This document shows, one piece after another, positions 1,121 to 63,958 of a stretch of 64,000 nucleotides of DNA. The notes under the pieces were generated by a model. That model made no database searches and was not told the DNA's origin. It was given only the letters and a program-made list of their open reading frames with translations. This DNA comes from Candidatus Shapirobacteria bacterium (GTDB taxonomy: Bacteria > Patescibacteriota > Microgenomatia > UBA12405): assembly GCA_028704635.1 (NCBI GenBank), contig JAQWFB010000003.1:56357-120356 (forward strand), in the 5' to 3' direction. Every line of letters begins with the position of its first letter. Positions within the stretch are counted from its first letter, which is position 1. A program made the translations under genes and the position numbers.

Positions 1121-1166
1121 CGCCCTGTCAAGGGAGATGTCCCCGCTACGCGGGGACAGAGGGTTT
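1121..1166 (+). repeat. Copy 1 of the dispersed structured repeat (CCCTGTCAAGGGAG, variable GC hairpin, GAGGGTTT)
   Basis: cgCCCTGTCAAGGGAGatgtCCCCGCtacGCGGGGacaGAGGGTTT, in the 78-bp spacer between the response-regulator and histidine-kinase genes. See the copies at 8548, 33319 and 63660. Confidence 0.6.
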
Positions 1167-1177
1167 AATACAAAAAT

Positions 1178-2188
1178 ATGTTTAAACAAGCCCGATTAAA
1201 ACTAACTGGTTGGTATCTTTTAATCATCATGGTTGTTAGTTTTTCCTTTAGTGCTCTTATTTATCAAATCAGTAGCATGGAAATTATCCATTTTGCCGAG
1301 TCCCAACGAAGTCGAATTGAAAGAAAATTCAATTCTTCTTGTCCCGATTCGCCACCGCCACCAATTTTAGTCGACTCTGATCTTATCGTTGAAAGTCAAC
1401 ATCGTCTTCTTGCCAATTTAGGCATCATTAATGGTTTTATTCTTTTAATTTCTGGCTCACTTTCTTATTTTTTGGCTGGTCGCACTCTTCGTCCTATTCA
1501 AAAAATGACCGAAGAACAAAAGCAGTTTATCAGTGACGCTTCTCATGAATTAAGAACCCCCATCACTGCTCTTAAAGCCATGCTTGAAGTTTCTCTTCGC
1601 GACCCTAAATTAGATTTAATTGAATCCAAAAAGGTTCTCACCAATGCTATTTATTCCACTAATCAATTAAAAAATTTATCGGATTCTCTTCTTGAGTTGA
1701 ATCATTTTAATAATAAATCGGCTCTTAATTTAAGCCCAGTTTCAATTAAAAACTTAATGTCTGAATCCATTAAAAAAATTAAACCCAAAGCCGACAAAAA
1801 ACAAATTACCATCAAAGTTAACCCAATCAAAGGCCAGATCAATGTTGATGTTCAAAAAATAGAAGAGCTATTTTTAATTCTTCTCGACAACGCCATTAAA
1901 TATAGTCCCAAATCCAGTCAAATTAAATTCATCGCTCTTAAAACTAGAAAAAATATAATTTTTAAAATCATTGATCAAGGTATTGGTATTTCCCAAAAAG
2001 ATTTGCCTCATATTTTTGATCGTTTTTATCGGGCCGACAATGCTCGCACCAAAAATGGTACTTCTGGTTATGGGCTCGGTCTTTCCATTGCCAAAAAAAT
2101 TATTGAATCACATGGTGGAAAATTGGAAGTTGACAGTAAATTAAATAATGGAACTACTTTTTTCATCTATTTATCGAATTTCAGCTAA
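1178..2188 (+). CDS. Sensor histidine kinase (HisKA plus HATPase_c)
   Basis: N-terminal transmembrane segments, H-box SHELRTPITALKAMLE, and G-box motifs DQGIGIS and GYGLGLSIAK. Confidence 0.85.
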   Translation: MFKQARLKLTGWYLLIIMVVSFSFSALIYQISSMEIIHFAESQRSRIERKFNSSCPDSPPPPILVDSDLIVESQHRLLANLGIINGFILLISGSLSYFLAGRTLRPIQKMTEEQKQFISDASHELRTPITALKAMLEVSLRDPKLDLIESKKVLTNAIYSTNQLKNLSDSLLELNHFNNKSALNLSPVSIKNLMSESIKKIKPKADKKQITIKVNPIKGQINVDVQKIEELFLILLDNAIKYSPKSSQIKFIALKTRKNIIFKIIDQGIGISQKDLPHIFDRFYRADNARTKNGTSGYGLGLSIAKKIIESHGGKLEVDSKLNNGTTFFIYLSNFS

Positions 2189-2218
2189 CCTTCAGTATTA
2201 ACTTTTACACTTCCGTTT

Positions 2219-3559
2219 ATGAAATTACCTAAATTTTTGAGAATAATTTTAATCTTTTTAATCATTGGCTTAATTGGTTATTTTGCTTATTCCAAAATAA
2301 CTTCCTCAACTAAAAAAGTAACTTATAAAACTACTCAAGTTACCAAAGGTACTTTAGTCACTTCTATTTCTGCCACTGGCACCATCACTTCTTCTAATAA
2401 ATCTGCCATTACCACCGGTGCTACCGGTACTATTAAAACCGTTTATGTTAAAGACGGCGACACTGTCACTAAAGGTCAAAAAATTGCCGAAGTTACTCTC
2501 GATGATGATGGTACGAGTAACAAAATTACTGCCTGGACTAATTATTTAACCATGCAGCAAAATGAAAAACAGGCTATTGCTGATCAATCGTCTGCTGATA
2601 TTCAAATGTGGACCGATCGTCAAGCCGTTATCGACGCTCAAGAAAAATATAATAGTTCAATTTCTGGCGGTTGGAATCCAACAACTCACGCTGAATATAC
2701 CTACAATGAAAAAGCTGTTGTTGCTAAAACTTTAACTTTGGCCAAACAAAAATTCACCGCTGATGAAACTACTTACAATAATTATTCTGCTTTTGTCACC
2801 AAAGCCAAACAACAAACCACCGAAGCCTACAATAATTATAAAAAAGTTTCATCAACTATTTATGCCGCAGATTCGGGCACAATTAGCAATTTAAGTATTG
2901 CTCCTGGAGTTATTATTTCCAACACTTCCACTTCAATTACTGTTTCCACCGGCACTAAAAGTACTGAAACATCATCAACCGTTACTTCCCACACTGTTGG
3001 CAGTATCACCAATCCCAAAGGCCAATATCAAGCCACTCTCAGTTTAACTGAATCGGATATTGTTAAAATTAAAGCTGGTCAAAAAGTCACTATGACTATG
3101 GACGCTTTTAGTGGAACTACTTTTACTGGTCAAGTTTTATCTGTTGATGTTGCTGGTGCTACCACTTCTGGTGTTACTTCTTATTCTGTTGTTGTCCTTC
3201 TTGATGACACCGACAAACAAATCTATACCAACATGTCTGTCACTGCCACCGTTATCATCAACTCCAAGGCCGACGTTCTTCTAATTCCATCCACCGCTAT
3301 CGACACCGCCACTGATGGGACTACTACCGTTAGAACCATGAAAGATAATATTGTTTCCACTGTTACCATTACCACTGGTGACACTAACGACAGCGAAATC
3401 GAAGTTAAATCGGGCCTCAATGAAGGCGACACTATCATTTCTTCTTCTGTCAGTAATGACACCAAATCAAACAACAACACCACTTCTGCCTTTAGTAGTT
3501 CTAACTCCAATCGAAACAGTAGTAGTTTTGGTGGCATGGGTGGTCCTCCAGGAATGTAA
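2219..3559 (+). CDS. Periplasmic adaptor / membrane-fusion protein (HlyD/MacA-like), Thr/Ser-rich
   Basis: N-terminal signal anchor. Biotin-lipoyl-like motif GTIKTVYVKDGDTVTKGQKIAEV, C-terminal VKSGLNEGDTII, GGMGGPPGM tail. Immediately upstream of the ABC ATPase and FtsX permease. Confidence 0.65.
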   Translation: MKLPKFLRIILIFLIIGLIGYFAYSKITSSTKKVTYKTTQVTKGTLVTSISATGTITSSNKSAITTGATGTIKTVYVKDGDTVTKGQKIAEVTLDDDGTSNKITAWTNYLTMQQNEKQAIADQSSADIQMWTDRQAVIDAQEKYNSSISGGWNPTTHAEYTYNEKAVVAKTLTLAKQKFTADETTYNNYSAFVTKAKQQTTEAYNNYKKVSSTIYAADSGTISNLSIAPGVIISNTSTSITVSTGTKSTETSSTVTSHTVGSITNPKGQYQATLSLTESDIVKIKAGQKVTMTMDAFSGTTFTGQVLSVDVAGATTSGVTSYSVVVLLDDTDKQIYTNMSVTATVIINSKADVLLIPSTAIDTATDGTTTVRTMKDNIVSTVTITTGDTNDSEIEVKSGLNEGDTIISSSVSNDTKSNNNTTSAFSSSNSNRNSSSFGGMGGPPGM

Positions 3560-3570
3560 TTCAAATAATT

Positions 3571-4311
3571 ATGCCAAAATCAAAAGCCATTATTATTGCC
3601 AAAAATCTTTCCAAAATTTACAAAACTGATGTTTTGGAAACCGTCGCTCTCGACAATGTTTCTTTTCAAATCAACGAAGGGGAGTTTGTCGCCATCATGG
3701 GTCCATCTGGATCAGGTAAATCCACTCTAATGCATATCCTTGGTGCTCTCGATAAACCCACCAGTGGTCGATATATTTTAGATAGCAAAAACGTTGAAAA
3801 TTTATCAGATGATGAATTATCAGAAATCCGTAATAAAAAAATTGGTTTTATTTTTCAGGCCTTCAATCTTTTACCCAGAACCACCACTTTAACTAATGTT
3901 ATGTTGCCTATGGTCTATGCTGGCATTCCCAAAGAAGAAAGACAAAAAATTGCCGAAAAATTCCTTAAAATGGTTGGTCTTAGTGATCGCTTAAACCACA
4001 CTTCAAACCAAATTTCCGGTGGACAACAACAACGCGTTGCCATCGCTCGATCTTTAGTTTTAAATCCAGCCATGATTCTCGCTGACGAACCAACCGGGAA
4101 TATTGCCTCAGCTCAAGCCGATGAAGTTATGTCTATTTTTGAAAAATTAAATGACGAAGGTCACACTATTGTTATGATTACTCACGAACCAGATATTGCC
4201 GAACATGCTAAAAGAATTATTTTTATTAAAGACGGTAAAATTATCAAAGACAGCACCAATCACCAACGTCGAAGAGCAGCCATTAAAAAGGAGGTATTAA
4301 AAAATGATTGA
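3571..4311 (+). CDS. ABC transporter ATP-binding protein (MacB/LolD/FtsE-like)
   Basis: Walker [10 protein letters not shown], signature [13 protein letters not shown], Walker [10 protein letters not shown]-loop ITHE. Confidence 0.9.
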
Positions 4312-5527
4312 ATTTTGGGAATTAATTAAAGAAAGTGTTAACACTCTTCGGCTCAATAAAATGAGAACTAGTTTAGCTGTTTTGGGAATTGTTATTGGTA
4401 TTGGTAGTGTTATTGCTCTTATTTCCATTGGTCAATCCAGCCAAAAATCTGTCACTTCCCAAATAGAATCTCTGGGTTCTAATTTAATTACCGTTTCTCC
4501 TGGATCTCAATCATCTGGCATGGTTCGAACCTCAACTGCCAGAAAAACTTTAACTTTGGCCGATGCCGAAGCTCTTGAAAAAGCCGGTCTTTCAGCTATA
4601 AATTCTGTTTCACCTGAATCTTCCAGTCGGCTTCAAGTCATCGCCGGCGACAATAACACCAACACTACTATTTATGGCGTCAAATCAACTTACTCTGGTA
4701 TTCATAACCTCAAAATTAATGGTGGCCGATTTATCACCGACAGCGATTACACTTCCCAAAGTCACGTGGCCGTTCTTGGCCCCACTGTTGTTGAAGATCT
4801 TTATGGTAGTTCTAGTTACGATTGCATCGGTGAAATCATTCGCATTAATGGTCAAAACTTTACTATCATTGGTATTACTGTGGCCAAAGGTTCATCTGGT
4901 ATGACCGATTCAGATGACGCCATTTACATTCCTCTTTCCACTGCCATGAAGCAACTTTTTGGTGTCAATTATTTATCTTCTATCGCTATCGAAGCCGCCA
5001 GTAGTGATGTTATGGTTCAAGCCCAAAATCAAATCGGTTATTTTTTATTAGCTCGTCACAAAAAAACGGAAATCGCTAAAGCTGATTTTACTATCAGATC
5101 TTCAGAAGAAATGCTTTCCACTGCCTCCAGCGTCACCGGGACTTTCACTTCACTTTTATCCGGTGTTGCCGCCATTTCTCTCATCGTCGGTGGCATTGGT
5201 ATTATGAATATCATGTTAGTTACTGTCACTGAAAGAACTCGAGAAATCGGTTTAAGAAAAGCTCTTGGTGCCAAAAAGAAAACCATTATCACCCAATTTT
5301 TAACCGAATCAGTTATTCTTACTTTTACCGGCGGAATTTTAGGGATCATTATCGGTGTTGCCACTTCGTATGGTTATTCTCGGATCAATTCTTCTAATTT
5401 CACTATTTCACCATATTCAGTTTTATTAGCCTTCAGTGTTTCTGTTGTCATCGGTATTATTTTTGGTTGGTATCCTGCTAAAAAAGCCGCCAGTCTTCAA
5501 CCAATTGAAGCTCTTCGCTACGAGTAA
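4304..5527 (+). CDS. ABC transporter permease, FtsX/MacB-like
   Basis: N-terminal TM, large periplasmic domain, and a C-terminal 3-TM FtsX-type domain. Overlaps the ATPase gene by 8 nt. Confidence 0.8.
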   Translation: MIEFWELIKESVNTLRLNKMRTSLAVLGIVIGIGSVIALISIGQSSQKSVTSQIESLGSNLITVSPGSQSSGMVRTSTARKTLTLADAEALEKAGLSAINSVSPESSSRLQVIAGDNNTNTTIYGVKSTYSGIHNLKINGGRFITDSDYTSQSHVAVLGPTVVEDLYGSSSYDCIGEIIRINGQNFTIIGITVAKGSSGMTDSDDAIYIPLSTAMKQLFGVNYLSSIAIEAASSDVMVQAQNQIGYFLLARHKKTEIAKADFTIRSSEEMLSTASSVTGTFTSLLSGVAAISLIVGGIGIMNIMLVTVTERTREIGLRKALGAKKKTIITQFLTESVILTFTGGILGIIIGVATSYGYSRINSSNFTISPYSVLLAFSVSVVIGIIFGWYPAKKAASLQPIEALRYE

Positions 5528-5535
5528 TTTCAGCC

Positions 5536-6051
5536 TTGTTTCAGTTTAGTTTTTTATTATCAATCAATTATTTATTATTTAAAATTATGAAAAACATAAA
5601 ACAAATATTTTCCGTTTCCACTATTATTATTTCTCTAGTCACTCTTGTTATCGGCTTTGCCGGTGGTTATATTTATCAAAAAAATAAAACACCTTCTTTT
5701 GCTCGCAATGGTCAATCTCAAATGGCTGGTGGTAATCCTTCTAATCGTAGTGGTAATGGAACTGGTGGTATGCCCAGTCAAAGAATTTCCTCTAAAGAAA
5801 CTGTTGGTGAAATCACCACTGTCGATAACTCTTCTATAACCGTCAAAACCCCCGATGGTGGTTCTAAAATTATTATGATTTCTGATTCCACTACTATTAA
5901 CCAAGCTACTAAAGTTGATAAAACCAATCTTAAAGATGGTTCTCAAGTCTCTATTTCTGGTGATCAAAACACTGACGGCACTGTTACCGGTAAGATTATT
6001 AATATTAATTCCACTACTACTGCTGTCACCACTCCTGTCACTAAAAATTAA
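5536..6051 (+). CDS. Hypothetical Gly/Thr-rich secreted or membrane-anchored protein
   Basis: One N-terminal TM, then low-complexity G/T/S-rich sequence. The true start is probably the internal Met near 5587 (MKNIKQIF). Confidence 0.4.
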   Translation: MFQFSFLLSINYLLFKIMKNIKQIFSVSTIIISLVTLVIGFAGGYIYQKNKTPSFARNGQSQMAGGNPSNRSGNGTGGMPSQRISSKETVGEITTVDNSSITVKTPDGGSKIIMISDSTTINQATKVDKTNLKDGSQVSISGDQNTDGTVTGKIININSTTTAVTTPVTKN

Positions 6052-6077
6052 ATTTTTATTAATTTTTAATTAATTTA

Positions 6078-6104
6078 AAACCCTCCCAAATTCGGAGGGT
6101 TTTA
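6078..6104 (+). terminator. Intrinsic terminator hairpin CCCTCCcaaattcGGAGGG followed by TTTT
   Basis: Perfect 6-7 bp GC stem plus a T-run after the efflux operon. Near-identical to the hairpin at 40716. Confidence 0.6.
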
Positions 6105-6143
6105 ACTCGACTGTTAATTTGATAAGATTAAAAACTATTTTCT

Positions 6144-7562
6144 ATGATCAACAAAGCCAAAAATATTATTAAAATGCCCGTTTTTAAGGCACTTTTTACT
6201 CTGGCTATTCCTATTATCATGGCCAATCTTTTTCAGGCCATGTATCAACTTACTGATTCTTTTTGGGTTGGTCGTCTTGGGGGCACTGCTCTCGCCGCTG
6301 TTTCTATTTGTGGTCCGGTCATTTTTTTAACCGTTTCTTTAGGTATTGGTTTTGCTATTGCCGGTTCTACTTTCGTTGCTCAATATTTTGGTGCTAAAAA
6401 CCATAAAATGGTCAGCCATGCCGCCGCCCAAACAATTTTAATGATTATTGCTACATCCATTATTTTTAGTACCTTAGGATTTATTTTTGCTCCACAGATA
6501 CTTCATTTTATGGGAGCTAATACTGAAATTTTCAGTATGGCTTTGGCTTTTTTAAGAATTTCTTTTATTGGTCTTGTTGCTAATTTTTCTTTTTTTATTT
6601 TTCAATCTATTATGAGAGGAATTGGCCGTCCCCAGATTCCCGTCTACATAGTCATTGCCACTGTTTTGTTAAATTTTATCCTTGATCCACTTTTAATTTT
6701 TGGATTTGGTTCAATTCCAGCTTTTGGTCCTGCAGGTGCTGCTGTGGCCACTCTTTTAACCCAAACCATTGCCGCCGTTTCGGGCTTTATTATTCTCTTT
6801 GGTGGGCGCCATGGCATTCATTTAAAAATGAGTGATTTTAGACCAGATTTTAAATTTATTAAAAAAGCTTTTAAAATTGGTTTACCTTCATCAATTGAAC
6901 AATCATCTCGTAATTTAGTCATGGTTTTTATGACGTCTCTTATTGCTGGTTTTGGCACCACCGCTGTTGCCTCTTACGGAGCTGGTTCAAATATTATTCA
7001 AGTCGCTATTTTTATTGCCGTCGGATTATCTGTTGCCAACGGCACTTTAGTTGGTCAAAATATTGGAGCTCAAAATATTAGTCAAGCCATCAAAGCCTCA
7101 AAAATCAGTTCTTTTGTTGCTTTCACTTGTTTATCTTTTTTAGGAATCATTATTTTTATTTTTTCCCGCCAATTCGTTTCTTTCTTCGTTCCCAATGATT
7201 TTGCTGTTATCAAAGAAGCGTCTAATTTTATTAGAACCGTTTCTCTTAGTTTTGGGTTAGTTGCCCTACAGATGTGTTTTAGTAGCGTTTTTAACGCTGC
7301 TGGTCAAACTAAAATCACCATGTTTGTTACCATTTTTTCCCAATGGTGTATTCAAATTCCTTTAGCTTATTTTTTATCACAACACACTAGTCTTGGTATT
7401 CAAGGAATTTGGTTAACTTTTCCTATTACTAATATTTTTACTAGTTTTATCGCTTTTATCTTTTATTCTCGTGGATCTTGGAAAACCACCAGAATTATTG
7501 AAGAAGATAAAACTATTGGTCAAGTGTCTGAAGAGACCACAGTTGAAGAGGGTATTCATTAA
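6144..7562 (+). CDS. MATE family efflux transporter
   Basis: 12 predicted TMs. N-terminal motif PIIMANLFQAMYQLTDSFWVGRLG is typical of MatE/NorM. Confidence 0.7.
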   Translation: MINKAKNIIKMPVFKALFTLAIPIIMANLFQAMYQLTDSFWVGRLGGTALAAVSICGPVIFLTVSLGIGFAIAGSTFVAQYFGAKNHKMVSHAAAQTILMIIATSIIFSTLGFIFAPQILHFMGANTEIFSMALAFLRISFIGLVANFSFFIFQSIMRGIGRPQIPVYIVIATVLLNFILDPLLIFGFGSIPAFGPAGAAVATLLTQTIAAVSGFIILFGGRHGIHLKMSDFRPDFKFIKKAFKIGLPSSIEQSSRNLVMVFMTSLIAGFGTTAVASYGAGSNIIQVAIFIAVGLSVANGTLVGQNIGAQNISQAIKASKISSFVAFTCLSFLGIIIFIFSRQFVSFFVPNDFAVIKEASNFIRTVSLSFGLVALQMCFSSVFNAAGQTKITMFVTIFSQWCIQIPLAYFLSQHTSLGIQGIWLTFPITNIFTSFIAFIFYSRGSWKTTRIIEEDKTIGQVSEETTVEEGIH

Positions 7563-7635
7563 ATAAACTTTACATTCACCTAAAATTCATCTAATATTAA
7601 TTTGTTAGTTATTTTACAAAAGGAGGTGTATTTTA

Positions 7636-7836
7636 ATGAACAAAAGCCCTTTATATACCCTTTGTCTTGTTCTTGCCATAATTGGTGGACTTAATTGGGG
7701 ATTAGTTGGTCTTTTTAATTATGATCTTGTCGCCATGATTTTTGGCAATATGTCCTTTTTGTCAAAATTAGTTTACGACCTTGTTGGTTTATCGTCATTT
7801 TATCTTTTAATAGCTCTTTTTTACTCAAAAAAATAA
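7636..7836 (+). CDS. DUF378 family small membrane protein
   Basis: 66 aa. GGLNWGLVGLFNYDLV matches the DUF378 signature. Ribosome-binding site aaaggagg lies 7 nt upstream. Confidence 0.6.
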   Translation: MNKSPLYTLCLVLAIIGGLNWGLVGLFNYDLVAMIFGNMSFLSKLVYDLVGLSSFYLLIALFYSKK

Positions 7837-7847
7837 AGATATTCTTT

Positions 7848-7874
7848 GGTGACAGAATATTTTCTGTCACCTTT
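7848..7874 (+). terminator. Intrinsic terminator-like hairpin GGTGACAGaatatttTCTGTCACC followed by TTT
   Basis: 8-bp perfect stem followed by a T-run, immediately after the DUF378 gene. Confidence 0.45.
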
Positions 7875-8033
7875 AGTTCACCTTTATTTTTAAATAATCT
7901 TCAATTTCCTTTAATAATTTTTCTGTTGGTTTTCTACAATTACAGTTCTTATTATGTTCTATATGCCATTTTATTCGTTCTTTTTGGGTTGGATTTTTCG
8001 GCATTCTATTTTTCAAATGCCATTCTTTATTAA

Positions 8034-8828
8034 TCATAACTGTTCTTTTCTTTCCATTATCATCTTATAACCCAAATCAATCAAATATTGATAATTCTTT
8101 TTTCTAAAATCTAAAACAAAAGCTTTGTTTTCAATAGAATTTAAATAAATTATTTTTTTATTTTTCAAATGTTTTGCCCTTTCTAAGCTATTACTTTGTT
8201 GCATCGCTATAATTGTTGCATGTAAAACATCCACTACTGTACTTTTTTCATTTATTTTTTTAATTGGTTTAGTAATATCCGATATTATTATTTTTCCCGA
8301 TTTTTCAATCAAACTAGTTGGCACATTATTCACCACTCCGCCATCCACCAAAAATTTATCATGATATTTAAGTGGGGGAAACACCCCGGGAATCGATATC
8401 GACGCCATCACCCCTGGAAAAATTTTTCCTTTTTCAAAAATTATCTCTTCATTATTATTTATATCTGTAGCATTAAATCTCATCTTAATTTTCAAATCAT
8501 CAAAATGATCAGCCTTAATATAATTTTTCAAAAACTTTTCCAAGATAGCCTCCCTGTCAAGGGAGGTGCCCGCAGGGCGGAGGGTTTTATCAAAAATTAT
8601 AGACTGAATTAGTTTAGAAAAATTCAACTCACTCGCTTCCTTTTCAAAATCAATTTTCGGATTAGCCGCATACATCAATCCCACTATTGCTCCAATCGAT
8701 GTCCCACTAATTTCATTTATTTTTATTCCCATTTCCTGGAGTCCTTTTATTACTCCCATATGAAAGAAACCTCTTGCACCACCGCCTCCAAGAACCAATC
8801 CAATTTTATTTTTATTAAACATAATCAT
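8034..8828 (-). CDS. Patatin-like phospholipase
   Basis: GGGGARG oxyanion motif, GTSIG (GxSxG) nucleophile and DGG catalytic Asp. Carries the 14-codon in-frame repeat-derived insert TLRPAGTSLDREA. Confidence 0.8.
   Translation of the reverse strand: MIMFNKNKIGLVLGGGGARGFFHMGVIKGLQEMGIKINEISGTSIGAIVGLMYAANPKIDFEKEASELNFSKLIQSIIFDKTLRPAGTSLDREAILEKFLKNYIKADHFDDLKIKMRFNATDINNNEEIIFEKGKIFPGVMASISIPGVFPPLKYHDKFLVDGGVVNNVPTSLIEKSGKIIISDITKPIKKINEKSTVVDVLHATIIAMQQSNSLERAKHLKNKKIIYLNSIENKAFVLDFRKKNYQYLIDLGYKMIMERKEQL
8548..8588 (+). repeat. Copy 2 of the dispersed structured repeat, inside the patatin CDS in antisense and in frame
   Basis: gcctCCCTGTCAAGGGAGGTGCCCGCAGGGCGGAGGGTTTT. On the minus strand it translates as LRPAGTSLDREA with no stop codon. 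Confidence 0.6.
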
Positions 8829-11065: not shown

Positions 11066-11146
11066 ATTAGAGTGACAAAATTAACTTTTGATATTTTAAT
11101 CAAGAATGGCTCTTAAATTATCCCCATATGTTAAATTAATTTACAA

Positions 11147-11773: not shown

Positions 11774-11853
11774 TATCTTTTTGTCTTCATTAAACACTTT
11801 TTCTTTTTAAAATTTAGATATAAAATTAACCTAATTATCGATTAATATTTAAA

Positions 11854-12306: not shown

Positions 12307-12309
12307 AAA

Positions 12310-12354
12310 AAAAGGGTTTGTGCGTACCTACAAGTAGGTAGCCAAACCCTTTTA
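12310..12354. terminator. Bidirectional intrinsic terminator between convergent genes
   Basis: aaaaaaaaGGGTTTGtgcgtacctacaagtaggtagCCAAACCCtttt. A long hairpin with A-run and T-run flanks. Confidence 0.55.
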
Positions 12355-12378
12355 AAGGACAAAAAGTTCAAGATTAAT

Positions 12379-33306: not shown

Positions 33307-33318
33307 TTATTAATTTAA

Positions 33319-33366
33319 GCCGCCCTGTTAAGGGAGGTGCCCCGCAGAGCGGGGCGGAGGGTTTTT
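33319..33366 (+). repeat. Copy 3 of the dispersed structured repeat, intergenic, directly after the XRE gene
   Basis: gccgCCCTGTTAAGGGAGGTGCCCCGCagaGCGGGGCGGAGGGTTTTT. The tracked ORF at 33337 starts inside it. The likely real start is ATG 33369 (MIGKAKW). Confidence 0.6.
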
Positions 33367-56718: not shown

Positions 56719-57495
56719 ATGGAAGATATAAATCAAACAGATATAACGAATCAAATATTAGGCAATCAACCAACAAATATCCCAATTTCCAAATCAAAAA
56801 ATATTTTTAAATTACTATTTTTTATTTCTATTTTTGTTTTATTGGTTGTAATAATTTCTTTCTATTTTATTATTTTAAATAAAAAAAATTATCAAGCATC
56901 AAACAATAATATTTCTCAGATAACACCAACCACTTCTGTTTCCAAAAGCGATAATTTAAATATTAGTGCATATATTAAAACAGACAATAAAAATAGTTAT
57001 CTTGTTTTAAATAAAAACAATGAAGAATTTATTATTGACACCATCGACAAAGATATGTGGTTGGATGAAGTTAGATTTACAGGCAGTCTGAGGTATTTAA
57101 TATACGCTATCAAAGCCCCAGGAGCTACTAGTATTAAAATTTATGATACTAAACATAATTCTTTTATTAAAGATGAAGAGTCAGACGGTTTTTTTCCTCA
57201 ATCAGGTCCTCCTATAATCACCAATGATGAAAATTACTTAATTTTTTGTTCGGGTAGTGACTATGCTGGGATAAGTGGTGGTAAAATAATTTCGTTATCA
57301 GATCAAAGTGTCAAATTTGATTTTATTAAATATTTAGGTAATAAAATAGCAGATTCTTCAATTTCTTGTTCATATAATTCAAATACTAATATTGTTTCTT
57401 TCCAATACTATCAAGGTACTGGTGGTACAAAAGATTCAGGCGTTAACTACAATTTAAACACAGACAAGTTTGAAGATTGGCAAATAGATAATTAA
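56719..57495 (+). CDS. Hypothetical membrane-anchored protein, paralog of 52377-53192
   Basis: MEDINQTDITNQ...IFKLLFFISIFVLLVVIISFYFIILNKK N-terminus. C-terminal domain similar to 52377 (FCSGSDYAGISGGKII vs SCAQSGMSAGGILI). Confidence 0.45.
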   Translation: MEDINQTDITNQILGNQPTNIPISKSKNIFKLLFFISIFVLLVVIISFYFIILNKKNYQASNNNISQITPTTSVSKSDNLNISAYIKTDNKNSYLVLNKNNEEFIIDTIDKDMWLDEVRFTGSLRYLIYAIKAPGATSIKIYDTKHNSFIKDEESDGFFPQSGPPIITNDENYLIFCSGSDYAGISGGKIISLSDQSVKFDFIKYLGNKIADSSISCSYNSNTNIVSFQYYQGTGGTKDSGVNYNLNTDKFEDWQIDN

Positions 57496-58838: not shown

Positions 58839-60788
58839 TTACTTTTCTTCAAAAATAATTTTATCGTCAGGCAACGAAATCGTTGATCCTGTCCATTGTT
58901 CATCAATTTTATTTTCTAAAATTTTAGTCATAATTCTATTCCAAATTGGCGTTGCTCCACTTACACCCGAAGCCACCCAACTCATTGGAGTTGAATCGTT
59001 ATTTCCCACCCAAGCCGCCACCAAATAATTAGGCGTCCACCCAATACACCAATTATCTTTCAAATTATTTGTCGTTCCAGTTTTTACTGCCACAGTTTTC
59101 CCTTCAATCTTCAATTTTGAACTTAATCCAAAAATAGGCGATCTGGCCTGGTTGTCACTCAAAATACTATCAATTGTTAAAGCTAAATTAGGATCCACAA
59201 TTTGTTCCGATTCTCTTTCTTTTATATAAATATTTTCTCCCAAATAATTATCAATTTTATAAATCGGGTTAATTTCCACCTTCTCTCCTAAATTGGCAAA
59301 CACAGTATATGCCTGAGCCAATTCTGTCATTTTAACTTCACCACTTCCCAATGCCAACGACAACCCATATCTGTTTCTATCTTTCCATGTAGTTATTCCC
59401 ATTTTTTCGGCTAAATCAATCATATTATTTACACCGTTTTCTGCCAATAATTTTACCGACGGCACATTTAAAGATGATGCTAACGCCGTTCTTAATGTTA
59501 CCTTGCCTAAATATTTACCAGTGTAATTTTGTGGTGAATATGGTTTTTGTCCCGGCACATAATAACTCACTGGGCTGTCATCGATATAATCTTCTGGATT
59601 TTTTCCTTTTTCAAATGCCAACAAATAATTAATTGGTTTTATTGACGACCCTGGTTGTCTTAAAGAAGTTGCCACATTCACATTACCATCAATATCAGCC
59701 GCTCCATAATCCTTCGATCCCACCATTGCCAAAATATCACCGTTCTTTACTCCAACCACCAATGCTGCCCCATTTGATATTTTTAAATTTTTCACTTTAT
59801 CAACTTCATCTCTAACCACTTTTTCTGCTTCTTTTTGGATATTCAAATCTAAACTGGTGTAAATATTTAATCCCTGTCTTTCCATATTTATATAGCCATA
59901 CTTATTTTCCAATATATTTTTAATATAAAAAACAAAATGAGGAGCTTCTATTTTTTGTTTTCTTTTTTCAAAAATTAATTTTTGTTCTAGTATTCTTACA
60001 CCCTCTTCCTCAGAAATATATTTTGCCGCCATCATTTCCTCGACCACTCTTTTCTGTCGGAAAATTCCCAATTCTGGATTATTTCCAAAAGGGGAGTAAG
60101 AACTTGGTGCGGCTGGCAGTCCTGCCAAAAAAGTTATTTCACTATCACTCAAATCATCAACATTTACCCCAAAATATTTTTGAGCTGCTTCCTGAATTCC
60201 ATACGCCTCACCACCATAAGAAACTTGGTTAAAATATCTTTCTAAAATTTCATCTTTAGTCCATTTTCTTTCTACTCGTAGAGTCAAAATTGCTTCCTTA
60301 ATTTTTCTTTTAAAAGATTTTTCATTAGTCAGAAACACATTTTTAACCAATTGTTGGGTAATTGTTGAGCCGCCTCGCAATTTATCATCATCAGATTTTT
60401 TAAAGTTATAAATAAATGCTTTTAAAATTCCCTTCAATGATAATCCCTTGTGTCTATAAAAATCTTTATCTTCAATTGATAAAGTTGCTTCAATAAATGT
60501 TTTTGGAATTTTATCTAAACTTATCCAAGTTCTATTTTCTTCTTCATAAAAACTATAAAGCAGATTTCCATTTCGGTCAAAAATTTTAGTTGATAATTTT
60601 GGCGGATTATAAATTAAATTTATATCCGGTATTTCTTTATTTAAAAATTGATAGCCATTATAAGTAAATACAATTAAAATAATTATTACCAAAAAAAACT
60701 TTGTTTTCTTCAAAAACCAAAAAATTGGCCTTCCTATTACTATTAAAAATTTAATTAATTTTTCCAGTAAAATCATCTCATTTAACAA
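58839..60788 (-). CDS. Class A penicillin-binding protein (glycosyltransferase GT51 plus transpeptidase)
   Basis: GT51 motifs (EDKDFYRHKG, GGSTITQQLVKN) and transpeptidase motifs (PGSSIKP as SxxK, KTGTT). Confidence 0.85.
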   Translation of the reverse strand: MLNEMILLEKLIKFLIVIGRPIFWFLKKTKFFLVIIILIVFTYNGYQFLNKEIPDINLIYNPPKLSTKIFDRNGNLLYSFYEEENRTWISLDKIPKTFIEATLSIEDKDFYRHKGLSLKGILKAFIYNFKKSDDDKLRGGSTITQQLVKNVFLTNEKSFKRKIKEAILTLRVERKWTKDEILERYFNQVSYGGEAYGIQEAAQKYFGVNVDDLSDSEITFLAGLPAAPSSYSPFGNNPELGIFRQKRVVEEMMAAKYISEEEGVRILEQKLIFEKRKQKIEAPHFVFYIKNILENKYGYINMERQGLNIYTSLDLNIQKEAEKVVRDEVDKVKNLKISNGAALVVGVKNGDILAMVGSKDYGAADIDGNVNVATSLRQPGSSIKPINYLLAFEKGKNPEDYIDDSPVSYYVPGQKPYSPQNYTGKYLGKVTLRTALASSLNVPSVKLLAENGVNNMIDLAEKMGITTWKDRNRYGLSLALGSGEVKMTELAQAYTVFANLGEKVEINPIYKIDNYLGENIYIKERESEQIVDPNLALTIDSILSDNQARSPIFGLSSKLKIEGKTVAVKTGTTNNLKDNWCIGWTPNYLVAAWVGNNDSTPMSWVASGVSGATPIWNRIMTKILENKIDEQWTGSTISLPDDKIIFEEK

Positions 60789-62961
60789 AGGCAGATGATG
60801 TATTAGGACTTGTATCTCCTACTAATGGGCAATCTAAACACACTTTAACTCCACTGACATCAGTCACCACTATGTGGTCCTGCCACTCCGCATTTGGTGT
60901 CTCTTCATTATCTTTCACAATTCTACCAGTATCTTTATTAATCAATACATTCATTCTCAAATTTGTTGCCACTGGTAAAAATTTTTTATTAAAATATTCA
61001 TAATGAGAGTCGCACCCGCCTTCTGGAACCGCTCCACCAGTCAAATTACAAACATTCATACCAATCACATCAGTTGGCATCACTGGTTTTTTAACAGTTT
61101 TATCTTTCAATAATTCAGTCATTATTTTATTCCAAATTGGCGCTGCTCCACTTATTCCCGAAACCACCCCACTCATTTTTGAATTATCATTATTTCCCAC
61201 CCAAGTTCCTACTACATAATCAGCCGTATAACCATAAGTCCAATTATCTCGTAAATCATTTGTTGTTCCAGTTTTTACCGCCACCTCTGGATGGTTTTTG
61301 ATATTTAACAGTGACCCTCTTCCAAAAACCATACCTCTCGCCCCATCATCAGATAATATATTTTGAATAATATAAGCTGTTTCTCTCGACAACACTCTTT
61401 CTCCAGGTGATTCTTCAAATTCTTCCAAAGTTTTTCCATCCTTATCTTCAATTTTTAATATTGGTGTCAAAGTTTGTTTAACTCCCATATTTGCTAAAAC
61501 ACCATAAGCGGTGGCCATATCTGTCATGTAAACTTCACCTCCACCTAAAGTCAATGATAATCCATAATTAGACGGATCAATAAAAGTAGTTATTCCCATT
61601 GCCGATGCCGATGCTATAAAAGTTTCTACTCCATTTAATTTCAAGACTTTCACTGCTCCAATATTTAAAGAATTAGCCAAAGAATTCCTGATGGTTTGCA
61701 GTCCATGATAAGCCCCGCCATAATTTGTTGGACAATACGGCTTCTGGTTTTCTAAACCAAAACAAGTTGGATCATCATCAACTATTGACGCCGCTGTTAT
61801 TTTTCCTAACTCCAATGCTGTTGCATAATTTAAAGGTTTTATTGACGACCCTGGCTGTCTTAATGCTGTTGCCACGTTATATTTACCATCTATATCATTA
61901 GAAAAATAATCAATCGATCCCACCATTGCTAAAATTTGTCCTGTTCCTGGTTCAGTCACCAAAGCTGCGCCATTTGTTACATTTGATTTTTTCAATTTCG
62001 CCACTTCAGAAGCTACCACTACTTCTGTCATATTTTGCATATCCAAATCTAATGTTGTAGTAATTTTCAACCCTCCCTCAGTCAATTTTTTCAAACCATA
62101 TTCTTCCGTCAATCGTTCTTTAACATAAAAAACAAAATGAGGTGCCAAAATTCCATTTTTATCCAAAAAATAATTTAATTTTTCTGCTTTTGCTGCTTCC
62201 ATCTCCTCTTTAGTAATAAAACCAACTTCATTCATTCTCGTCAAAACCAATTCTTGTCTAGCCTTAGCTGCTACCGGATGACTAAACGGATTGTATTTTG
62301 TTGGCGATGCTGGCAATCCAGCAATCAATGCCGCCTCAGCTAAATCCAAATCTTTTATATCCTTATTAAAAAATTCTCTTGCTGCTGATTTTGCTCCCCA
62401 TAAGGTTCCGCCATATGGCGTTTGATTAAAATACATTTCCAAAATTTGATCCTTACTATAAAGTGCCTCTGTTGCCACAGTTAATATCGCTTCTTTAATT
62501 TTTCTAGATATTGTTCTTTCTTGTGTTAATAATGCATTTTTAACCAATTGTTGGGTTAAAGTTGATCCTCCCTGCAATCGTTTTTCCACTATAGTTCTAT
62601 AAAGACCTCTCAAAATTCCTCTAAAATCAAAGCCATTATGTTTATAAAAATTAACATCCTCAATTGCTAAAGTCGCTTTTCTTAAATTATCTGGCACCTC
62701 CGCAAGTTTAACGGGAGTCCTTTTTTTATCTAAATAAATTTCAAATAATAATCGACCTTTTCGATCTAATATTTGCGAAGATTGAGGATAACTGCCATTG
62801 CTTAATTGAGTTGGGTTAGGTATTTCTTTAACAATATAAAAAATTACCAATACTAATAATACTAATATCAATACCAATATCCCAATCCCTTTTTTTAAAA
62901 AAGACTTCTTAATTCCTTTCATTATATTCCCTATTTTTTTGATTCCAGTTTTCCAACTCAT
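60778..62961 (-). CDS. Class A penicillin-binding protein, second tandem paralog
   Basis: EDVNFYKHNG, GGSTLTQQLVKN, PGSSIKP, KTGTT. 727 aa. 11-nt overlap with the downstream PBP gene. Confidence 0.85.
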   Translation of the reverse strand: MSWKTGIKKIGNIMKGIKKSFLKKGIGILVLILVLLVLVIFYIVKEIPNPTQLSNGSYPQSSQILDRKGRLLFEIYLDKKRTPVKLAEVPDNLRKATLAIEDVNFYKHNGFDFRGILRGLYRTIVEKRLQGGSTLTQQLVKNALLTQERTISRKIKEAILTVATEALYSKDQILEMYFNQTPYGGTLWGAKSAAREFFNKDIKDLDLAEAALIAGLPASPTKYNPFSHPVAAKARQELVLTRMNEVGFITKEEMEAAKAEKLNYFLDKNGILAPHFVFYVKERLTEEYGLKKLTEGGLKITTTLDLDMQNMTEVVVASEVAKLKKSNVTNGAALVTEPGTGQILAMVGSIDYFSNDIDGKYNVATALRQPGSSIKPLNYATALELGKITAASIVDDDPTCFGLENQKPYCPTNYGGAYHGLQTIRNSLANSLNIGAVKVLKLNGVETFIASASAMGITTFIDPSNYGLSLTLGGGEVYMTDMATAYGVLANMGVKQTLTPILKIEDKDGKTLEEFEESPGERVLSRETAYIIQNILSDDGARGMVFGRGSLLNIKNHPEVAVKTGTTNDLRDNWTYGYTADYVVGTWVGNNDNSKMSGVVSGISGAAPIWNKIMTELLKDKTVKKPVMPTDVIGMNVCNLTGGAVPEGGCDSHYEYFNKKFLPVATNLRMNVLINKDTGRIVKDNEETPNAEWQDHIVVTDVSGVKVCLDCPLVGDTSPNTSSAFVK

Positions 62962-63532
62962 TTATAATTTTATCTACTTTTTCATTTTTGTAATTGAATG
63001 ATTTTACTATATCTTCATAAGCTAAACCAGCCTGATCAATTTGTTGATTAGTTTTAAAAAATTCAACATCCTTTTGATTTTTTTCAAAAAGATTCTTTTT
63101 AGCTTCTTCTAAATTACAAATTGAATCATCCAATGTTTTTAAAATTAAGTCATCACTTTTTTTATCCTTAATCAAATTTACCACTTCGAACATCCTTTTA
63201 TCCGCCATTAGTAAATATACTTCAGCCTTTTCTTTTGGTGTTCGACTCAATAAAATCCATAACTCATCTCGAAATTTTTTTAACGAATACCTTATATCTC
63301 CTGGTTCAATATTACTTTCAGGAACCTTATAAATTTTTAAAATTTTTTCCCCATTTCCAATTTCCTTTACATATTCAATCGGAATATTTCTTAACCTATT
63401 AGATCTCATATCGCTCATCATTTTTTCAAATCCCGCCGATACCAAAGACCAAAACAAAATCATTAAACTGATTATTAATAAAAAAAACCGGCCACACCAT
63501 TTTATAGTTTTTTCTTTTGGCCGGGAAATCAT
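62909..63532 (-). CDS. Hypothetical membrane-anchored protein
   Basis: 207 aa, one N-terminal TM, coiled-coil-like C-terminus. Overlaps the PBP start by 53 nt, so one of the two starts is probably internal. Confidence 0.35.
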   Translation of the reverse strand: MISRPKEKTIKWCGRFFLLIISLMILFWSLVSAGFEKMMSDMRSNRLRNIPIEYVKEIGNGEKILKIYKVPESNIEPGDIRYSLKKFRDELWILLSRTPKEKAEVYLLMADKRMFEVVNLIKDKKSDDLILKTLDDSICNLEEAKKNLFEKNQKDVEFFKTNQQIDQAGLAYEDIVKSFNYKNEKVDKIINELENWNQKNREYNERN

Positions 63533-63547
63533 TCTTTATTTTATCAT

Positions 63548-63958
63548 TCAATGGTGAAAAAAAGCTTTATGCAATCCAACTTTCTCATTTTTTATTTTTT
63601 TCTTCATATATAAAAATTGCAGCCAAAACATCAACCAATTAATTATCCTTTCTGATAAAGCCTCCCTGTCAAGGGAGGTCCCCCGATTTATCGGGGGGGA
63701 GGGTTTTTTCAAACTATAACCAGTAGCAATGTACTTTTTTGCCCAATCATTAGCCAAAATAAATTTTTCATAAGTTTTATTCTTGTTTATCAGCGGTTTC
63801 ATTAATATTAAATCAACCGCATTTTTTAAATGTTGTTTTTCTTTGTCCAATTCCAATGACTTTTCATCCAACCATAAGTTAAAACAAAACTCATCTGTTT
63901 TTTCTTTTTTTCCAAATTTACGATGGGGGATTTTATTAACCATAATAAAAAGTCTCAA
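63548..63958 (-). CDS. Hypothetical protein carrying an in-frame repeat-derived insert
   Basis: 136 aa. It contains KPSPPINRGTSLDREA, encoded by repeat copy 4 in antisense. Confidence 0.3.
   Translation of the reverse strand: MRLFIMVNKIPHRKFGKKEKTDEFCFNLWLDEKSLELDKEKQHLKNAVDLILMKPLINKNKTYEKFILANDWAKKYIATGYSLKKPSPPINRGTSLDREALSERIINWLMFWLQFLYMKKKIKNEKVGLHKAFFHH
63660..63708 (+). repeat. Copy 4 of the dispersed structured repeat, inside a minus-strand ORF in antisense and in frame
   Basis: gcctCCCTGTCAAGGGAGGTCCCCCGAtttaTCGGGGGGGAGGGTTTTTT. Confidence 0.6.

Follow-up and report, generated by a model that had tools for sequence, protein, structure and literature searches.

Dispersed mirror-repeat elements with a putative intrastrand-triplex fold in Shapirobacteria and other Patescibacteria

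Knowledge of intrastrand triplex repeats in E. coli goes back to the 1990s (BoxC, later PIT and TMECO), and we know of no evidence that the triplex matters in vivo. The repeats count as purine-motif intrastrand triplex motifs of class II (Hoyne & Maher 2000; Holder et al. 2015, PMC4666352). The ITxF definition comprises a pyrimidine (Y) arm, a complementary purine (R) arm and a mirrored third arm, with stems of 6-15 nt in which one mismatch is allowed and loops of 1-6 nt (PMC4666352). TMECO has the consensus CCCTCNCCC N3-6 GGGNGAGGG N3 GGGNGAGGG and is reported as always intergenic (PMC4666352). As single-stranded DNA it forms a stable triplex by CD and NMR (Holder et al. 2015, PMC4666352), and the in vitro proof of the fold concerns only these E. 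coli relatives of the repeats described below. In vivo DMS footprinting of E. coli TMECO showed no stable triplex, and copy number in E. coli is reported to vary greatly between related genomes.

The window analysed here, a stretch of 64,000 nt from a Candidatus Shapirobacteria bacterium (contig JAQWFB010000003.1, positions 56,357 to 120,356), holds four copies of what is, judged by its sequence, a repeat of the same kind as BoxC, PIT and TMECO, in a variant with GTCA as loop 1 and a palindrome as loop 2. A sequence-only reading of this DNA had described a dispersed structured repeat family with four same-orientation copies, and all four were confirmed on the plus strand, where they share a common hairpin 1, a variable GC hairpin and GGAGGG(T)TT. 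The core CCCTGTYAAGGGAG has four exact matches in the window against 0.26 expected, at least five matches at up to two mismatches were seen in 0 of 100 shuffles, and repeat detection across the window grouped the four copies as a single family (D4). Their coordinates and parts are given in Table 1, in which the two genes flanking copy 1 were assigned from a Pfam scan.

Table 1. Positions, parts and surroundings of the four window copies, and the two genes in which copies 2 and 4 lie (window numbering).
Feature	Position	Strand	Y arm	Loop 1	R arm	Hairpin 2	Third arm	3' end	Surroundings and remarks
Copy 1	1116..1167	+	TCGCCCT 1120-1126	GTCA 1127-1130	AGGGAGA 1131-1137	GTCCCCGC-TAC-GCGGGGAC 1139-1157	AGAGGGT 1158-1164	TT	AAA flank; intergenic, between response-regulator gene (432-1100) and histidine-kinase gene (1178-2188)
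Copy 2	8545..8588	+	CCTCCCT 8549-8555	GTCA 8556-8559	AGGGAGG 8560-8566	GCCC-GCA-GGGC 8568-8578	GGAGGGT 8579-8585	TTT 8586-8588	antisense within patatin-like phospholipase gene
Copy 3	33316..33366	+	CCGCCCT 33320-33326 (position 5: G opposite A)	GTTA 33327-33330	AGGGAGG 33331-33337	GCCCCGC-AGA-GCGGGGC 33339-33355	GGAGGGT 33356-33362	T-run 33363-33366	intergenic, 204 nt past DUF2178 gene (32570-33115)
Copy 4	63657..63710	+	CCTCCCT 63661-63667	GTCA 63668-63671	AGGGAGG 63672-63678	CCCCCGA-TTTA-TCGGGGG 63680-63697	GGAGGGT 63698-63704	T-run 63705-63709	antisense within nucleotidyltransferase gene
Patatin-like phospholipase CDS	8034..8828	-							host of copy 2; PF01734 in all homologues
Nucleotidyltransferase-domain CDS, 3' part	63548..64000	-							host of copy 4; whole CDS 256 aa; continues past window end

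Read 5' to 3', the element consists of a pyrimidine arm, a GTCA loop, a purine arm, an optional GC palindrome, a mirrored purine arm and TT, the 3' block GGAGGGT being a mirror repeat of the 3' (purine) arm of hairpin 1, a central feature that the earlier reading overlooked. From the start of the pyrimidine arm to the end of the third arm it measures 37-49 nt, and the family overall spans about 30-55 nt. Loop 1 is 4 nt long, and GTCA is kept across subfamilies. Short variants among the related loci have a 3-nt second loop and no hairpin 2, which leaves pure Y-loop-R-loop-R' units. In all four window copies the third arm is mirrored at 7/7 positions, and the arms of hairpin 1 form Watson-Crick pairs at 7/7 positions in copies 2 and 4 and at 6/7 in copies 1 and 3, which have a G·A at position 5. 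At its 3' end copy 1 has AGAGGGTTT and not GGAGGGTTTT, a change that covaries with both arms of hairpin 1. Folded as single-stranded DNA (nearest-neighbour hairpin folding), the window copies reach -11.1 to -15.5 kcal/mol, with z from -2.6 to -4.1.

The likeness to BoxC, PIT and TMECO extends from the order of parts on a single strand (C-rich arm, loop, G-rich arm, loop, mirrored G-rich arm) to the triads C-G·G, T-A·A and T-A·T, to the mispairing of G with A at arm position 5, seen in roughly half of the copies of either family, and to the TTA second loop that the short variants have in common with them. Both families occur as many dispersed copies that vary between relatives, and for neither is a mobilising gene known. 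The three blocks and the triads of the ITxF definition are present in every window copy, whereas the connector from purine arm to third arm, which carries its own hairpin, is 12-20 nt long and so exceeds the 1-6 nt set for both loops. With 7-nt arms of the form CCKCCCT/AGGGAGR/RGAGGGT they do not fit the TMECO consensus, and they differ from TMECO in their conserved GTCA at loop 1 and in having at loop 2 a hypervariable palindrome of 9-28 nt instead of 3 nt. Copies that lie within genes and are read through make up two of the four in the window and about 45% of those at related loci, whereas TMECO is reported as intergenic; the orientation of the repeats has a strong GC-skew bias that is absent in E. 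coli; and the hosts are Shapirobacteria and other Patescibacteria. Near-consensus copies were seen only at two loci of other phyla (L054 and L064), and these are nearly identical to TMECO sequences listed in Table 1 of PMC4666352.

The four copies are members of a large family of small, non-coding, dispersed DNA repeats. A genome scan with the family pattern gave more than 112 related loci among the matches listed, and the dispersed, structured family described in the earlier reading is thus genuine. Family members are present in several phyla, and their hosts include Shapirobacteria and other Patescibacteria. Because the related loci were picked around pattern matches and many come from related MAGs, the counts given here are not counts of independent events. 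The viral contigs scanned with the family pattern gave 0 matches, an Rfam covariance-model search of the window copies returned no family, whether at the gathering threshold or with E allowed up to 5, and in the literature we found no report of these repeats in candidate-phyla-radiation bacteria or within genes.

The pyrimidine, purine and mirrored arms covary as triads in at least 11 sequence subfamilies; at arm position 7, for example, the triads are C-G·G in 79 cases, T-A·A in 28 and T-A·T in 7. The mirrored arm follows downstream, at a distance of up to 60 nt, in 166 of the 174 distinct GTYA hairpins that have a purine arm, and the controls on the same hairpins gave 20 for a direct copy, 10 for an upstream mirror copy and 7 for a permuted one. 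Eleven of twelve 7-nt arm sequences have their own matching third arm. An independent metagenome scan, in which only the loop, a purine arm of any sequence and hairpin 2 were prescribed, found the third arm mirrored at 7/7 positions in 42 of 64 matches and direct at 7/7 in 1 of 64. Wobble pairs in hairpin 1 (about 9 T·G vs 0 C·A) favour the G-rich strand as the folding strand; in hairpin 2 the corresponding numbers are 9 G·T and 5 A·C, which say little about the strand.

We infer that the G-rich strand, when single-stranded, can form a hairpin in which the mirrored arm occupies the major groove, and the covariation suggests that this putative fold is a purine-motif intrastrand DNA triplex built from G·G-C, A·A-T and T·A-T triads. 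Only the purine motif accommodates A or T over A-T pairs, and purine-motif triplexes do not form in RNA, as stated by Holder et al. 2015 (PMC4666352), which points to DNA rather than RNA as the folding molecule. The c(GNA)g triloops found in part of the hairpin-2 loops and the lack of an Rfam match point the same way.

Three other structures were considered and rejected. Watson-Crick pairing between the 5' arm and the 3' block (CCTCC/GGAGG) is available to the G variants only, is broken in the A variants (TCGCC/AGAGG) and is not conserved. A G-quadruplex in the G-rich half would be possible in short GGGG variants, and A-containing arms such as AGGGAGA and AAGAAGG are without G-tracts. A pyrimidine-motif triplex formed by the opposite strand would depend on consecutive protonated Cs and cannot accommodate the A/T alternation of the third arm.

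The covariation also bears on whether the repeats might be plain palindromic insertion elements, MITE- or RPE-like, in which the two hairpins matter and the mirrored 3' arm is incidental, having been inherited from a founder. They do resemble RPEs in their small size, in their high GC content within an AT-rich genome and in their in-frame read-through, and most copies belong to the two abundant subfamilies AGGGAGG and AGGGAGA, so that many triad matches are inherited and not independent. An inherited third arm is, however, hard to square with eleven arm sequences that each have their own mirrored third arm while the permuted and direct controls fail, or with short variants that dispense with hairpin 2. 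Nor do the copies have the hallmarks of a MITE: their ends (AAAG... and ...TTT) are not inverted repeats, and no target duplication is seen at the clean filled/empty pairs. The subfamily data already go most of the way to refuting a plain palindrome, which we consider quite improbable. Triad covariation through so many subfamilies argues instead for selection on the predicted triplex fold itself: we know of no polymerase process that copies sequence in mirror order, so the mirror match must be selected.

Hairpin 2 is complementary in all four window copies. The observation that it varies in sequence and yet pairs had been made in the earlier reading and holds good, except that copy 2, given there as CCCGC/GGGCGG, pairs better as GCCC/GGGC. 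Across the family we counted 57 distinct stems, with 411 Watson-Crick pairs vs 24 others, and c(GNA)g triloops in 28 of 84 hairpin-2 loops. This complementarity had been put forward as a sign of structural selection, for which it is weak evidence, because orthologous copies exchange the entire hairpin-2 interior as a module. The orthologue of copy 1 in L077, for instance, has the same arms and a different interior, and the orthologue of copy 3 in L098 has a different hairpin 2.

Insertion into genes is a behaviour associated with the Rickettsia palindromic elements (RPEs), reportedly described by Ogata et al. in 2000. RPEs are about 100-150 bp long, consist of one long imperfect palindrome and are, to our knowledge, confined to Rickettsia. 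The repeats here are like them in being small non-coding repeats that lie in frame in protein genes, are translated and place their peptide in a tolerated region, and in being also intergenic, in a reduced AT-rich genome. Compared by description, they differ in their length of 30-55 nt, in their mirror-repeat (triplex) layout in place of a single long palindrome, and in hosts from several phyla instead of Rickettsia. The comparison with RPEs drawn from the sequence was therefore apt as far as the genic copies are in frame, derived and read through, but the Y-R-R' mirror layout places the family with BoxC, PIT and TMECO and not with RPEs.

As had been noticed from the sequence, copies 2 and 4 lie antisense in minus-strand ORFs without introducing stops, and the peptides quoted for them are correct: on the minus strand copy 2 encodes ..DKTLRPAGTSLDREA.. 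and copy 4 encodes ..KKPSPPINRGTSLDREA.. The patatin motifs GGGxRG and GTSIG lie upstream of copy 2 and DGG downstream, and therefore a single patatin gene spans the copy; in an AF2 model of the protein the copy-2 residues fall in the loop of lowest pLDDT, between two helices. The ORF around copy 4, previously delimited as 63548-63958, is longer and belongs to the nucleotidyltransferase that runs off the window end; the full-length gene was read on an identical contig (L117). Among related copies, 78 of 172 lie inside ORFs, and 50 are deep within long ORFs, where sense and antisense frames both occur, two of each. The antisense orientation accounts for half of the genic copies. The genic copies found are those with a stop-free frame, in both window genes they sit in variable protein loops, and they add peptides of 7-19 residues, such as the GTSLDREA-containing segments in enzymes. 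Insertions and hypervariable loops in proteins of candidate-phyla-radiation bacteria arise recurrently from such segments, which, once translated, could mislead alignments, domain calls and structure predictions.

Comparison of orthologous sites shows that genic copies are derived. Patatin orthologues that are 82-89% identical are without the copy-2 segment, as are some nucleotidyltransferase homologues without the copy-4 segment, others having different variants of it. Neither window site is a clean insertion: the patatin site has a net gain of 21 nt with the frame shifted between two indels, and one nucleotidyltransferase allele has an equal-length AT-only replacement. Clean cases are a 36-nt in-frame insertion in L003, with empty sites in L036 and L029, and an intergenic pair (L018 filled, L053 empty), both without target duplication. 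The site of copy 1 in L060 has a different spacer without the element. All four window copies are old, because orthologous copies exist at 80-90% flank identity, and among near-identical strains we found no presence/absence difference of copies. Empty sites were sought by all-against-all BLAST of flanks, which yielded usable pairs and several others that were confounded by conserved tRNA flanks or divergent spacers. Exact-protein look-ups found the response regulator and the DUF2178 protein not on record, and a third look-up led to the identical contig.

Intergenic copies are oriented at random with respect to the flanking genes (28/24/15/14, which matches background). With respect to GC skew, the G-rich strand of the element lies on the G-poor genome strand in 149 of 172 copies, and in 115 vs 7 where |skew| > 0.1. 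The bias persists within genes of either orientation, when counted per assembly (27 vs 6) and in the independent metagenome set (29 vs 9). No such bias was seen in the non-Patescibacteria assemblies sampled, or among E. coli TMECO singletons, which by our own count from Table 1 of PMC4666352 divide into 8 on the leading strand and 5 on the lagging strand. Orientation in Patescibacteria is tied to GC skew and not to transcription, which suggests that it is during replication that the fold matters. The skew bias would then reflect a link to replication, with fork direction read from 8-kb pieces and not from mapped origins.

We think it probable, with some reserve, that the repeats are selfish elements acting at the DNA level, that the triplex fold must be kept for a copy to propagate, and that propagation is linked to replication. 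Elements enter or overwrite AT-rich DNA without target-site duplication, copies may be exchanged between sites by gene conversion, and genic copies with a stop-free frame, which in the two window genes lie in variable loops, are simply translated. The link to replication could take either of two forms: the folding strand might be incorporated as, or within, the nascent lagging strand, or it might stall the polymerase when it lies on the single-stranded lagging-strand template, so that copies are lost.

A replication-oriented bias of this strength, independent of gene orientation, would also be expected of a chromosomal DNA signal that is useful to the host, with a logic like that of Chi, KOPS or other strand-skewed motifs, and whose copies are kept by host selection and not by selfish spread. 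Such a signal might program a pause in replication, mark a recombination hot spot or form a structure on the leading-strand template to which proteins bind. Orthologous copies that persist with conserved arms over 10-20% flank divergence, a GTCA loop conserved across subfamilies and the presence of the family in several phyla would all suit such a role. However, the copies sit at arbitrary CDS positions and in several frames, their presence differs between close orthologues, copy numbers are very uneven between related genomes, as is reported for E. coli, the bias is missing from E. coli and from the non-Patescibacteria assemblies sampled, and the short KOPS-like GGGNAGGG that some copies contain has the wrong orientation for a leading-strand signal. 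We regard a host signal as unlikely.

Propagation as selfish DNA has partial parallels elsewhere. Fungal mitochondrial double-hairpin elements and GC clusters, and the very small dispersed repeats (SDR) of cyanobacteria, are tiny GC-rich structured repeats in AT-rich genomes that lie between genes and inside coding or structural-RNA genes and encode no transposase; we know of no mirror or triplex architecture described for them. Compared by description, the repeats here are likewise tiny, GC-rich and both intergenic and genic, and differ in hosts and sequences. With the REP/BIME-RAYT and IS200/IS605 systems they have in common that they are short, defined by structure and without target duplication, and their skew-tied orientation resembles that of IS200/IS605, in which insertion orientation is coupled to the replication fork. 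Unlike REP/BIME, they are without a GTAG-type 5' tetranucleotide and are not restricted to extragenic sites. A Pfam scan of ten window ORFs found no transposase and no RAYT/TnpA, and identified no mobilising gene.

More tentatively, and with less than even confidence, we suggest that the three-way covariation, which holds through many subfamilies and phyla, may be the first comparative-genomic evidence of a purine-motif intrastrand triplex that is formed and selected in living cells; that the elements may be structure-specific mobile DNA, the folded triplex being recognised by an enzyme at the replication fork, or else a replication-oriented chromosomal signal; and that protein loops may be routinely remodelled by them in Patescibacteria. 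The window copies offer concrete sequences for biophysical tests.

The plus strand of the repeats had also been proposed as a terminator, and as an RNA element it might act as an intrinsic terminator or 3'-end stabiliser, or as a translational switch that hides a GGAGG ribosome-binding site. In favour of such a role, TTT(T) comes after the hairpins, two copies (1 and 3) are preceded by genes of the same orientation, and in copy 3 and about 12 related copies the third-arm GGAGG is 6-10 nt ahead of a start codon. A general terminator role is unsupported because orientation is random with respect to genes, intergenic copies being at the random expectation and half of the genic ones antisense; for copies 2 and 4 there is no gene on the plus strand that they could serve. 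Moreover, the unpaired third arm, of 7-9 nt, puts the T-run 8-9 nt past hairpin 2, which does not agree with an intrinsic terminator, and a consensus scan for terminators and promoters over window positions 1-20000 called neither copy 1 nor copy 2 and gave totals at shuffle level. The covariation has the purine-motif pattern reported not to form in RNA, E. coli PIT elements are reported to have no promoter or terminator activity (PMC4666352), and an Rfam match is absent, all of which makes an RNA element very improbable. On the selfish-DNA reading, a few copies incidentally provide a GGAGG ribosome-binding site; the third arm of copy 3, whose GGAGG is 9 nt upstream of the ATG at 33370, can double as that of a 131-aa ORF.

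The repeats have the same plus-strand layout at all four sites of the window, as read directly from its sequence: a pyrimidine arm, loop 1, a purine arm, a second hairpin, a mirrored third arm and TT. Four exact matches to the 14-nt core CCCTGTYAAGGGAG occur in the window, where 0.26 would be expected by chance, and de novo repeat detection grouped the four copies as one family, confirming the family noticed in the sequence-only reading. In this stretch of about 31% G+C, each copy folds as single-stranded DNA into two adjacent hairpins (-11.1 to -15.5 kcal/mol, z -2.6 to -4.1) with arms of 7 nt, a loop 1 of GTCA in copies 1, 2 and 4 and GTTA in copy 3, and a GC palindrome in place of the second loop. 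Copies 1 and 3 fall between genes. Copies 2 and 4 fall within minus-strand ORFs, in antisense, and are open in the frame of the host gene, as had been claimed.

Positions of the repeat copies, their host genes and other features in the window
Feature	Position	Strand
Repeat copy 1	1116-1167	+
Hairpins, family D16	6070-6108; 40707-40745	
Patatin-like phospholipase CDS, host of copy 2	8034-8828	-
Repeat copy 2	8545-8588	+
1958-aa ORF	15327-21203	-
LOOT RNA (Rfam RF03000)	23782-23905	-
Repeat copy 3	33316-33366	+
1004-aa ORF	41491-44505	
54-nt repeat, family D11	45897-45950; 46525-46578	
Repeat families D2, D6, D7	48502-48657; 52349-52543; 56770-56885	
Class A penicillin-binding proteins, tandem pair	58839-60788; 60778-62961	-
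Nucleotidyltransferase CDS, host of copy 4	63548-64000	-
Repeat copy 4	63657-63710	+

The 3' block of the element is the 3' arm of hairpin 1 in reversed order, and is neither a direct nor an inverted copy of any sequence. We scanned one genome per species with the pattern CCCTGTYAAGGGAG N8-38 GAGGGTT, for which we estimate only a handful of chance matches, and found many further copies, at no fewer than 112 loci. Among the matches listed, three bases co-vary, namely those after AGGGAG, before GAGGG and two positions before CCCT, and the triads at arm position 7 (5' arm, 3' arm, third arm) are C-G·G in 79 cases, T-A·A in 28 and T-A·T in 7. When the same loci were searched more generally, for any 7-bp hairpin whose 3' arm is all purine and recurs as a mirrored arm after it, many subfamilies of differing sequence were recovered; these include the purine/third arm pairs AGGGAGG/GGAGGGT, AAGAGGG/GGGAGAT, AAGAAGG/GGAAGAT, AAGGGAG/GAGGGAT, AGGGGAG/GAGGGGT, AGGGAAG/GAAGGGT and AGGGAAA/AAAGGGT, and further subfamilies obey the same rule. 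A mirrored arm lies within 60 nt downstream in 166 of 174 distinct GTYA hairpins with a purine arm, against 20 with a direct copy, 10 with a mirror copy upstream and 7 with a permuted arm. An independent test on metagenome contigs used a pattern that set only the loop, a 7-mer of any purines and one frequent hairpin 2, leaving both the 5' arm and the third arm unspecified; the mirrored third arm matched at 7/7 positions in 42 of the 64 distinct hits and at 6/7 in 8, against a 7/7 direct copy in only one. Judged from sequence, the triads follow the rules of a purine-motif triple helix: its third arm runs antiparallel to the purine arm, placing G on a G-C pair and either A or T on an A-T pair. 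Two further hairpins in the window (family D16) are ordinary ones, built as AAAACCCTCC(C)-loop-GGAGGGTTTT; their GGAGGGTTTT equals the third arm of the repeats but is Watson-Crick paired to an upstream CCCTCC; these look like bidirectional terminators.

The family is of the intrastrand-triplex kind known from the E. coli BoxC repeats, which were renamed PIT elements and later TMECO (Holder et al. 2015, PMC4666352). TMECO have the form CCCTCNCCC N3-6 GGGNGAGGG N3 GGGNGAGGG and belong to class II (C-G·G) of the intrastrand triplex motifs; CD and NMR show that their single-stranded DNA folds into a very stable triplex. They are always intergenic in E. coli K-12, lack promoter or terminator activity and are linked with local genome variability; purine-motif triplexes are stated not to form in RNA (PMC4666352). 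In common with TMECO, the present family has this layout and these triads, and its short variants (e.g. CCCCGCCCT-GTCA-AGGGAGGGG-TTA-GGGGAGGGT) have TTA as their second loop. Both families also often place a G opposite the A of arm position 5: about half of the copies do so here (62 with G and 60 with T among the matches listed), and the E. coli figure is 15 of 23 'mm' copies (PMC4666352). The copies at L054 (Margulisiibacteriota MAG) and L064 (unclassified MAG) come very close to TMECO in sequence. Those of the window depart from it in their 7-nt arms, their conserved GTCA (in copy 3, GTTA) loop 1 and the GC palindrome in place of the second loop. Likening the repeats to Rickettsia palindromic elements suits their behaviour but not their kind. 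TMECO-like units also occur in short tandem arrays at L055:1195-1283 (Cytophagia MAG) and L064:3266-3392, as TCCCCCTGTCAAGGGGGA every 30 nt and CCCTCTCCCTGTTAAGGGAGAGGG every 46 nt, some within long ORFs.

Several lines point to the element acting as DNA, with the G-rich strand folding. That strand is favored because the triad rules suit a purine motif on it; a triplex on the opposite strand, which we rejected, would depend on extended tracts of protonated C and could not accommodate the alternation of A and T. Mispairs in hairpin 1 include T·G and no C·A. Twenty-eight of 84 hairpin-2 loops are GNA triloops closed by C-G, which are unusually stable in DNA, and about 31 more are near-perfect palindromes. 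An Rfam search of the repeat copies gave no family match.

Homologues of the patatin occur in filled (..IFDKTLRPAGTSLDREA-ILEK..) and empty (..ILGMNKKPDG-ILEK..) forms, and the alignment bears out an insertion, the segment being missing from the closest relatives (82-89% identity) and from all distant homologues. At the DNA level the filled allele is a net 21 nt longer, most readily explained by two changes of about +29 and -8, between which the frame is shifted. A second clade, whose nearest relative is empty, also has filled alleles, suggesting recurrence, segment transfer or repeated loss. Patatin allele P0002 (L115:470-720) carries an extra 21-nt GC-rich insert within the GTCA loop, giving SLD-PASGRAG-REA, and its 'SLDPASxRA' signature recurs in two nucleotidyltransferase homologues (P0174 and P0185, SLDPASWRAS), from other genomes and at the site of copy 4. 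The insert is either nested in the element or the mark of a subfamily in which loop 1 is extended. The AlphaFold model of the patatin (mean pLDDT 78) places the element-encoded residues, about 77-92, in its lowest-confidence loop (pLDDT <50 at residues 78-85), between two helices and away from the GGGxRG, GxSxG and DGG motifs.

Comparison of homologues places copy 4 within a hypervariable segment of about 24 residues of the nucleotidyltransferase, where some homologues have the same element, one has a different subfamily (arm AGGGAGA and a different hairpin 2) and others have unrelated sequence. In allele P0124 (L118:1167-1347), 85% identical to that of the window, an AT-only stretch of 41 nt and equal length, AAAATTTTTAATTTTAAATTTTTAATTTTAAAAAAAGAAATT, stands in place of most of copy 4, and the AGGGAGGCT end is kept. 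A cleaner case is a CDS at L003, with a 36-nt AAGAAGG-family copy that is absent from L036 and L029 (flanks 85-88% identical); no target duplication was found in this comparison. An intergenic pair is filled at L018 and empty at L053. For each of the four window copies, other assemblies hold an orthologous copy whose flanks are 80-90% identical, indicating that the window copies are old; between these orthologues the arms are conserved and the hairpin-2 interior is replaced. The variation of hairpin 2 between copies had been taken as covariation under selection on structure; the interiors do differ, but module replacement or palindrome-correcting mutation accounts for this no less than selection for pairing does.

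Shapirobacteria are the source of most hits among the matches listed, and copies also occur in other Patescibacteria and in Peribacteria. Copies in Oscillospiraceae, Selenomonadales, Cloacimonadota, Elusimicrobia, Margulisiibacteriota and Cytophagia MAGs are convincing, while a few hits in Desulfopila, Ignavibacteria and Omnitrophota look like chance. No copy was found in the viral contigs scanned. MAGs labeled 'uncultured Gammaproteobacteria' (CAYSME, CAYPBP, CAYUUU; L004, L013, L018, L025 and others) have about 32% G+C, Shapirobacteria-type genes (nucleotidyltransferase homologues P0161 and P0180, on contigs of 40,609 and 86,782 nt) and syntenic sites in common with Shapirobacteria MAGs, and the label is probably wrong. 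In Oscillospiraceae MAG CAKSZX01 (L010, L065, L106, L046), a gut Firmicute, a conserved GTCAATGTGCAA comes after the copies and their flanks resemble one another, so that the triplex unit there is part of a larger repeat.

Gene context was counted for 172 elements from the loci listed and the window, together with the frames used. Seventy-six are intergenic, 78 lie fully within long ORFs (45 antisense, 33 sense) and 18 overlap an ORF end. The 50 deep copies, each over 150 nt away from either end of its ORF (32 antisense, 18 sense), occupy two sense and two antisense frames; the third antisense frame is unusable because it contains TGA. Orientation of intergenic copies relative to their neighbors (co-oriented tandem 28, anti-oriented tandem 24, divergent 15, convergent 14) is random and agrees with the gene-pair background, which argues against a general terminator or leader role and leaves the suggested terminator function unsupported. 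About 12 co-oriented copies end 6-10 nt upstream of a start codon, copy 3 lying 9 nt from the ATG at 33370, so the third-arm GGAGG can act as a ribosome-binding site. At L074:6425-6610 an element occupies the spacer between two tRNA genes; compared with L012 and L009, the same two genes abut at L012 with zero spacer.

For the same 172 copies we computed local GC skew with the elements masked, and it is negative in the element's orientation for 149; where |skew| exceeds 0.1, 115 are negative and 7 positive. Mean skew within genes is -0.08 for genes co-oriented with the element and -0.27 for anti-oriented genes, and since the bias is present in both it is not a by-product of gene orientation. 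The per-assembly majority is negative in 27 assemblies and positive in 6 (Patescibacteria assemblies split 42:5, 22:1, 17:1, 10:0 and 8:0), an independent metagenome set gave 29 against 9, and all four window copies obey the bias. Leading strands are normally G-rich, which would put the folding strand on lagging-strand sequence, i.e. the leading-strand template. The folded strand might be incorporated on the lagging side of the fork; alternatively, a folding strand on the exposed lagging-strand template might block the polymerase, and such copies would be lost. E. coli TMECO singletons have no such bias (8 leading, 5 lagging, our count from Table 1 of PMC4666352). Relative to the literature found, the breadth of triad covariation, the GTCA loop with the loop-2 palindrome, the in-frame copies within genes and the replication-strand bias in Patescibacteria are new.

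Other features of the window include a match over the full length of the LOOT RNA family, unrelated to the repeats (88.4 bits, gathering score 46.4). The sole Pfam signal in the 1958-aa ORF is a P-loop NTPase region (AAA_22/NPHP3_N-like, residues 273-410), and a Pfam scan of its 1004-aa neighbor gave no match. The 54-nt D11 repeat, starting ATTTTAAACCGGGCAGGT, has two copies 628 nt apart, each after a small plus-strand ORF. The paralogous penicillin-binding proteins (Transgly and Transpeptidase) are the source of repeat families D1, D3, D5 and D10, with a spacing of 2.2 kb. Families D2, D6 and D7 arise where three plus-strand genes, which begin at 48530, 52377 and 56719 and are probably paralogues in one gene cluster, resemble one another at their 5' ends.
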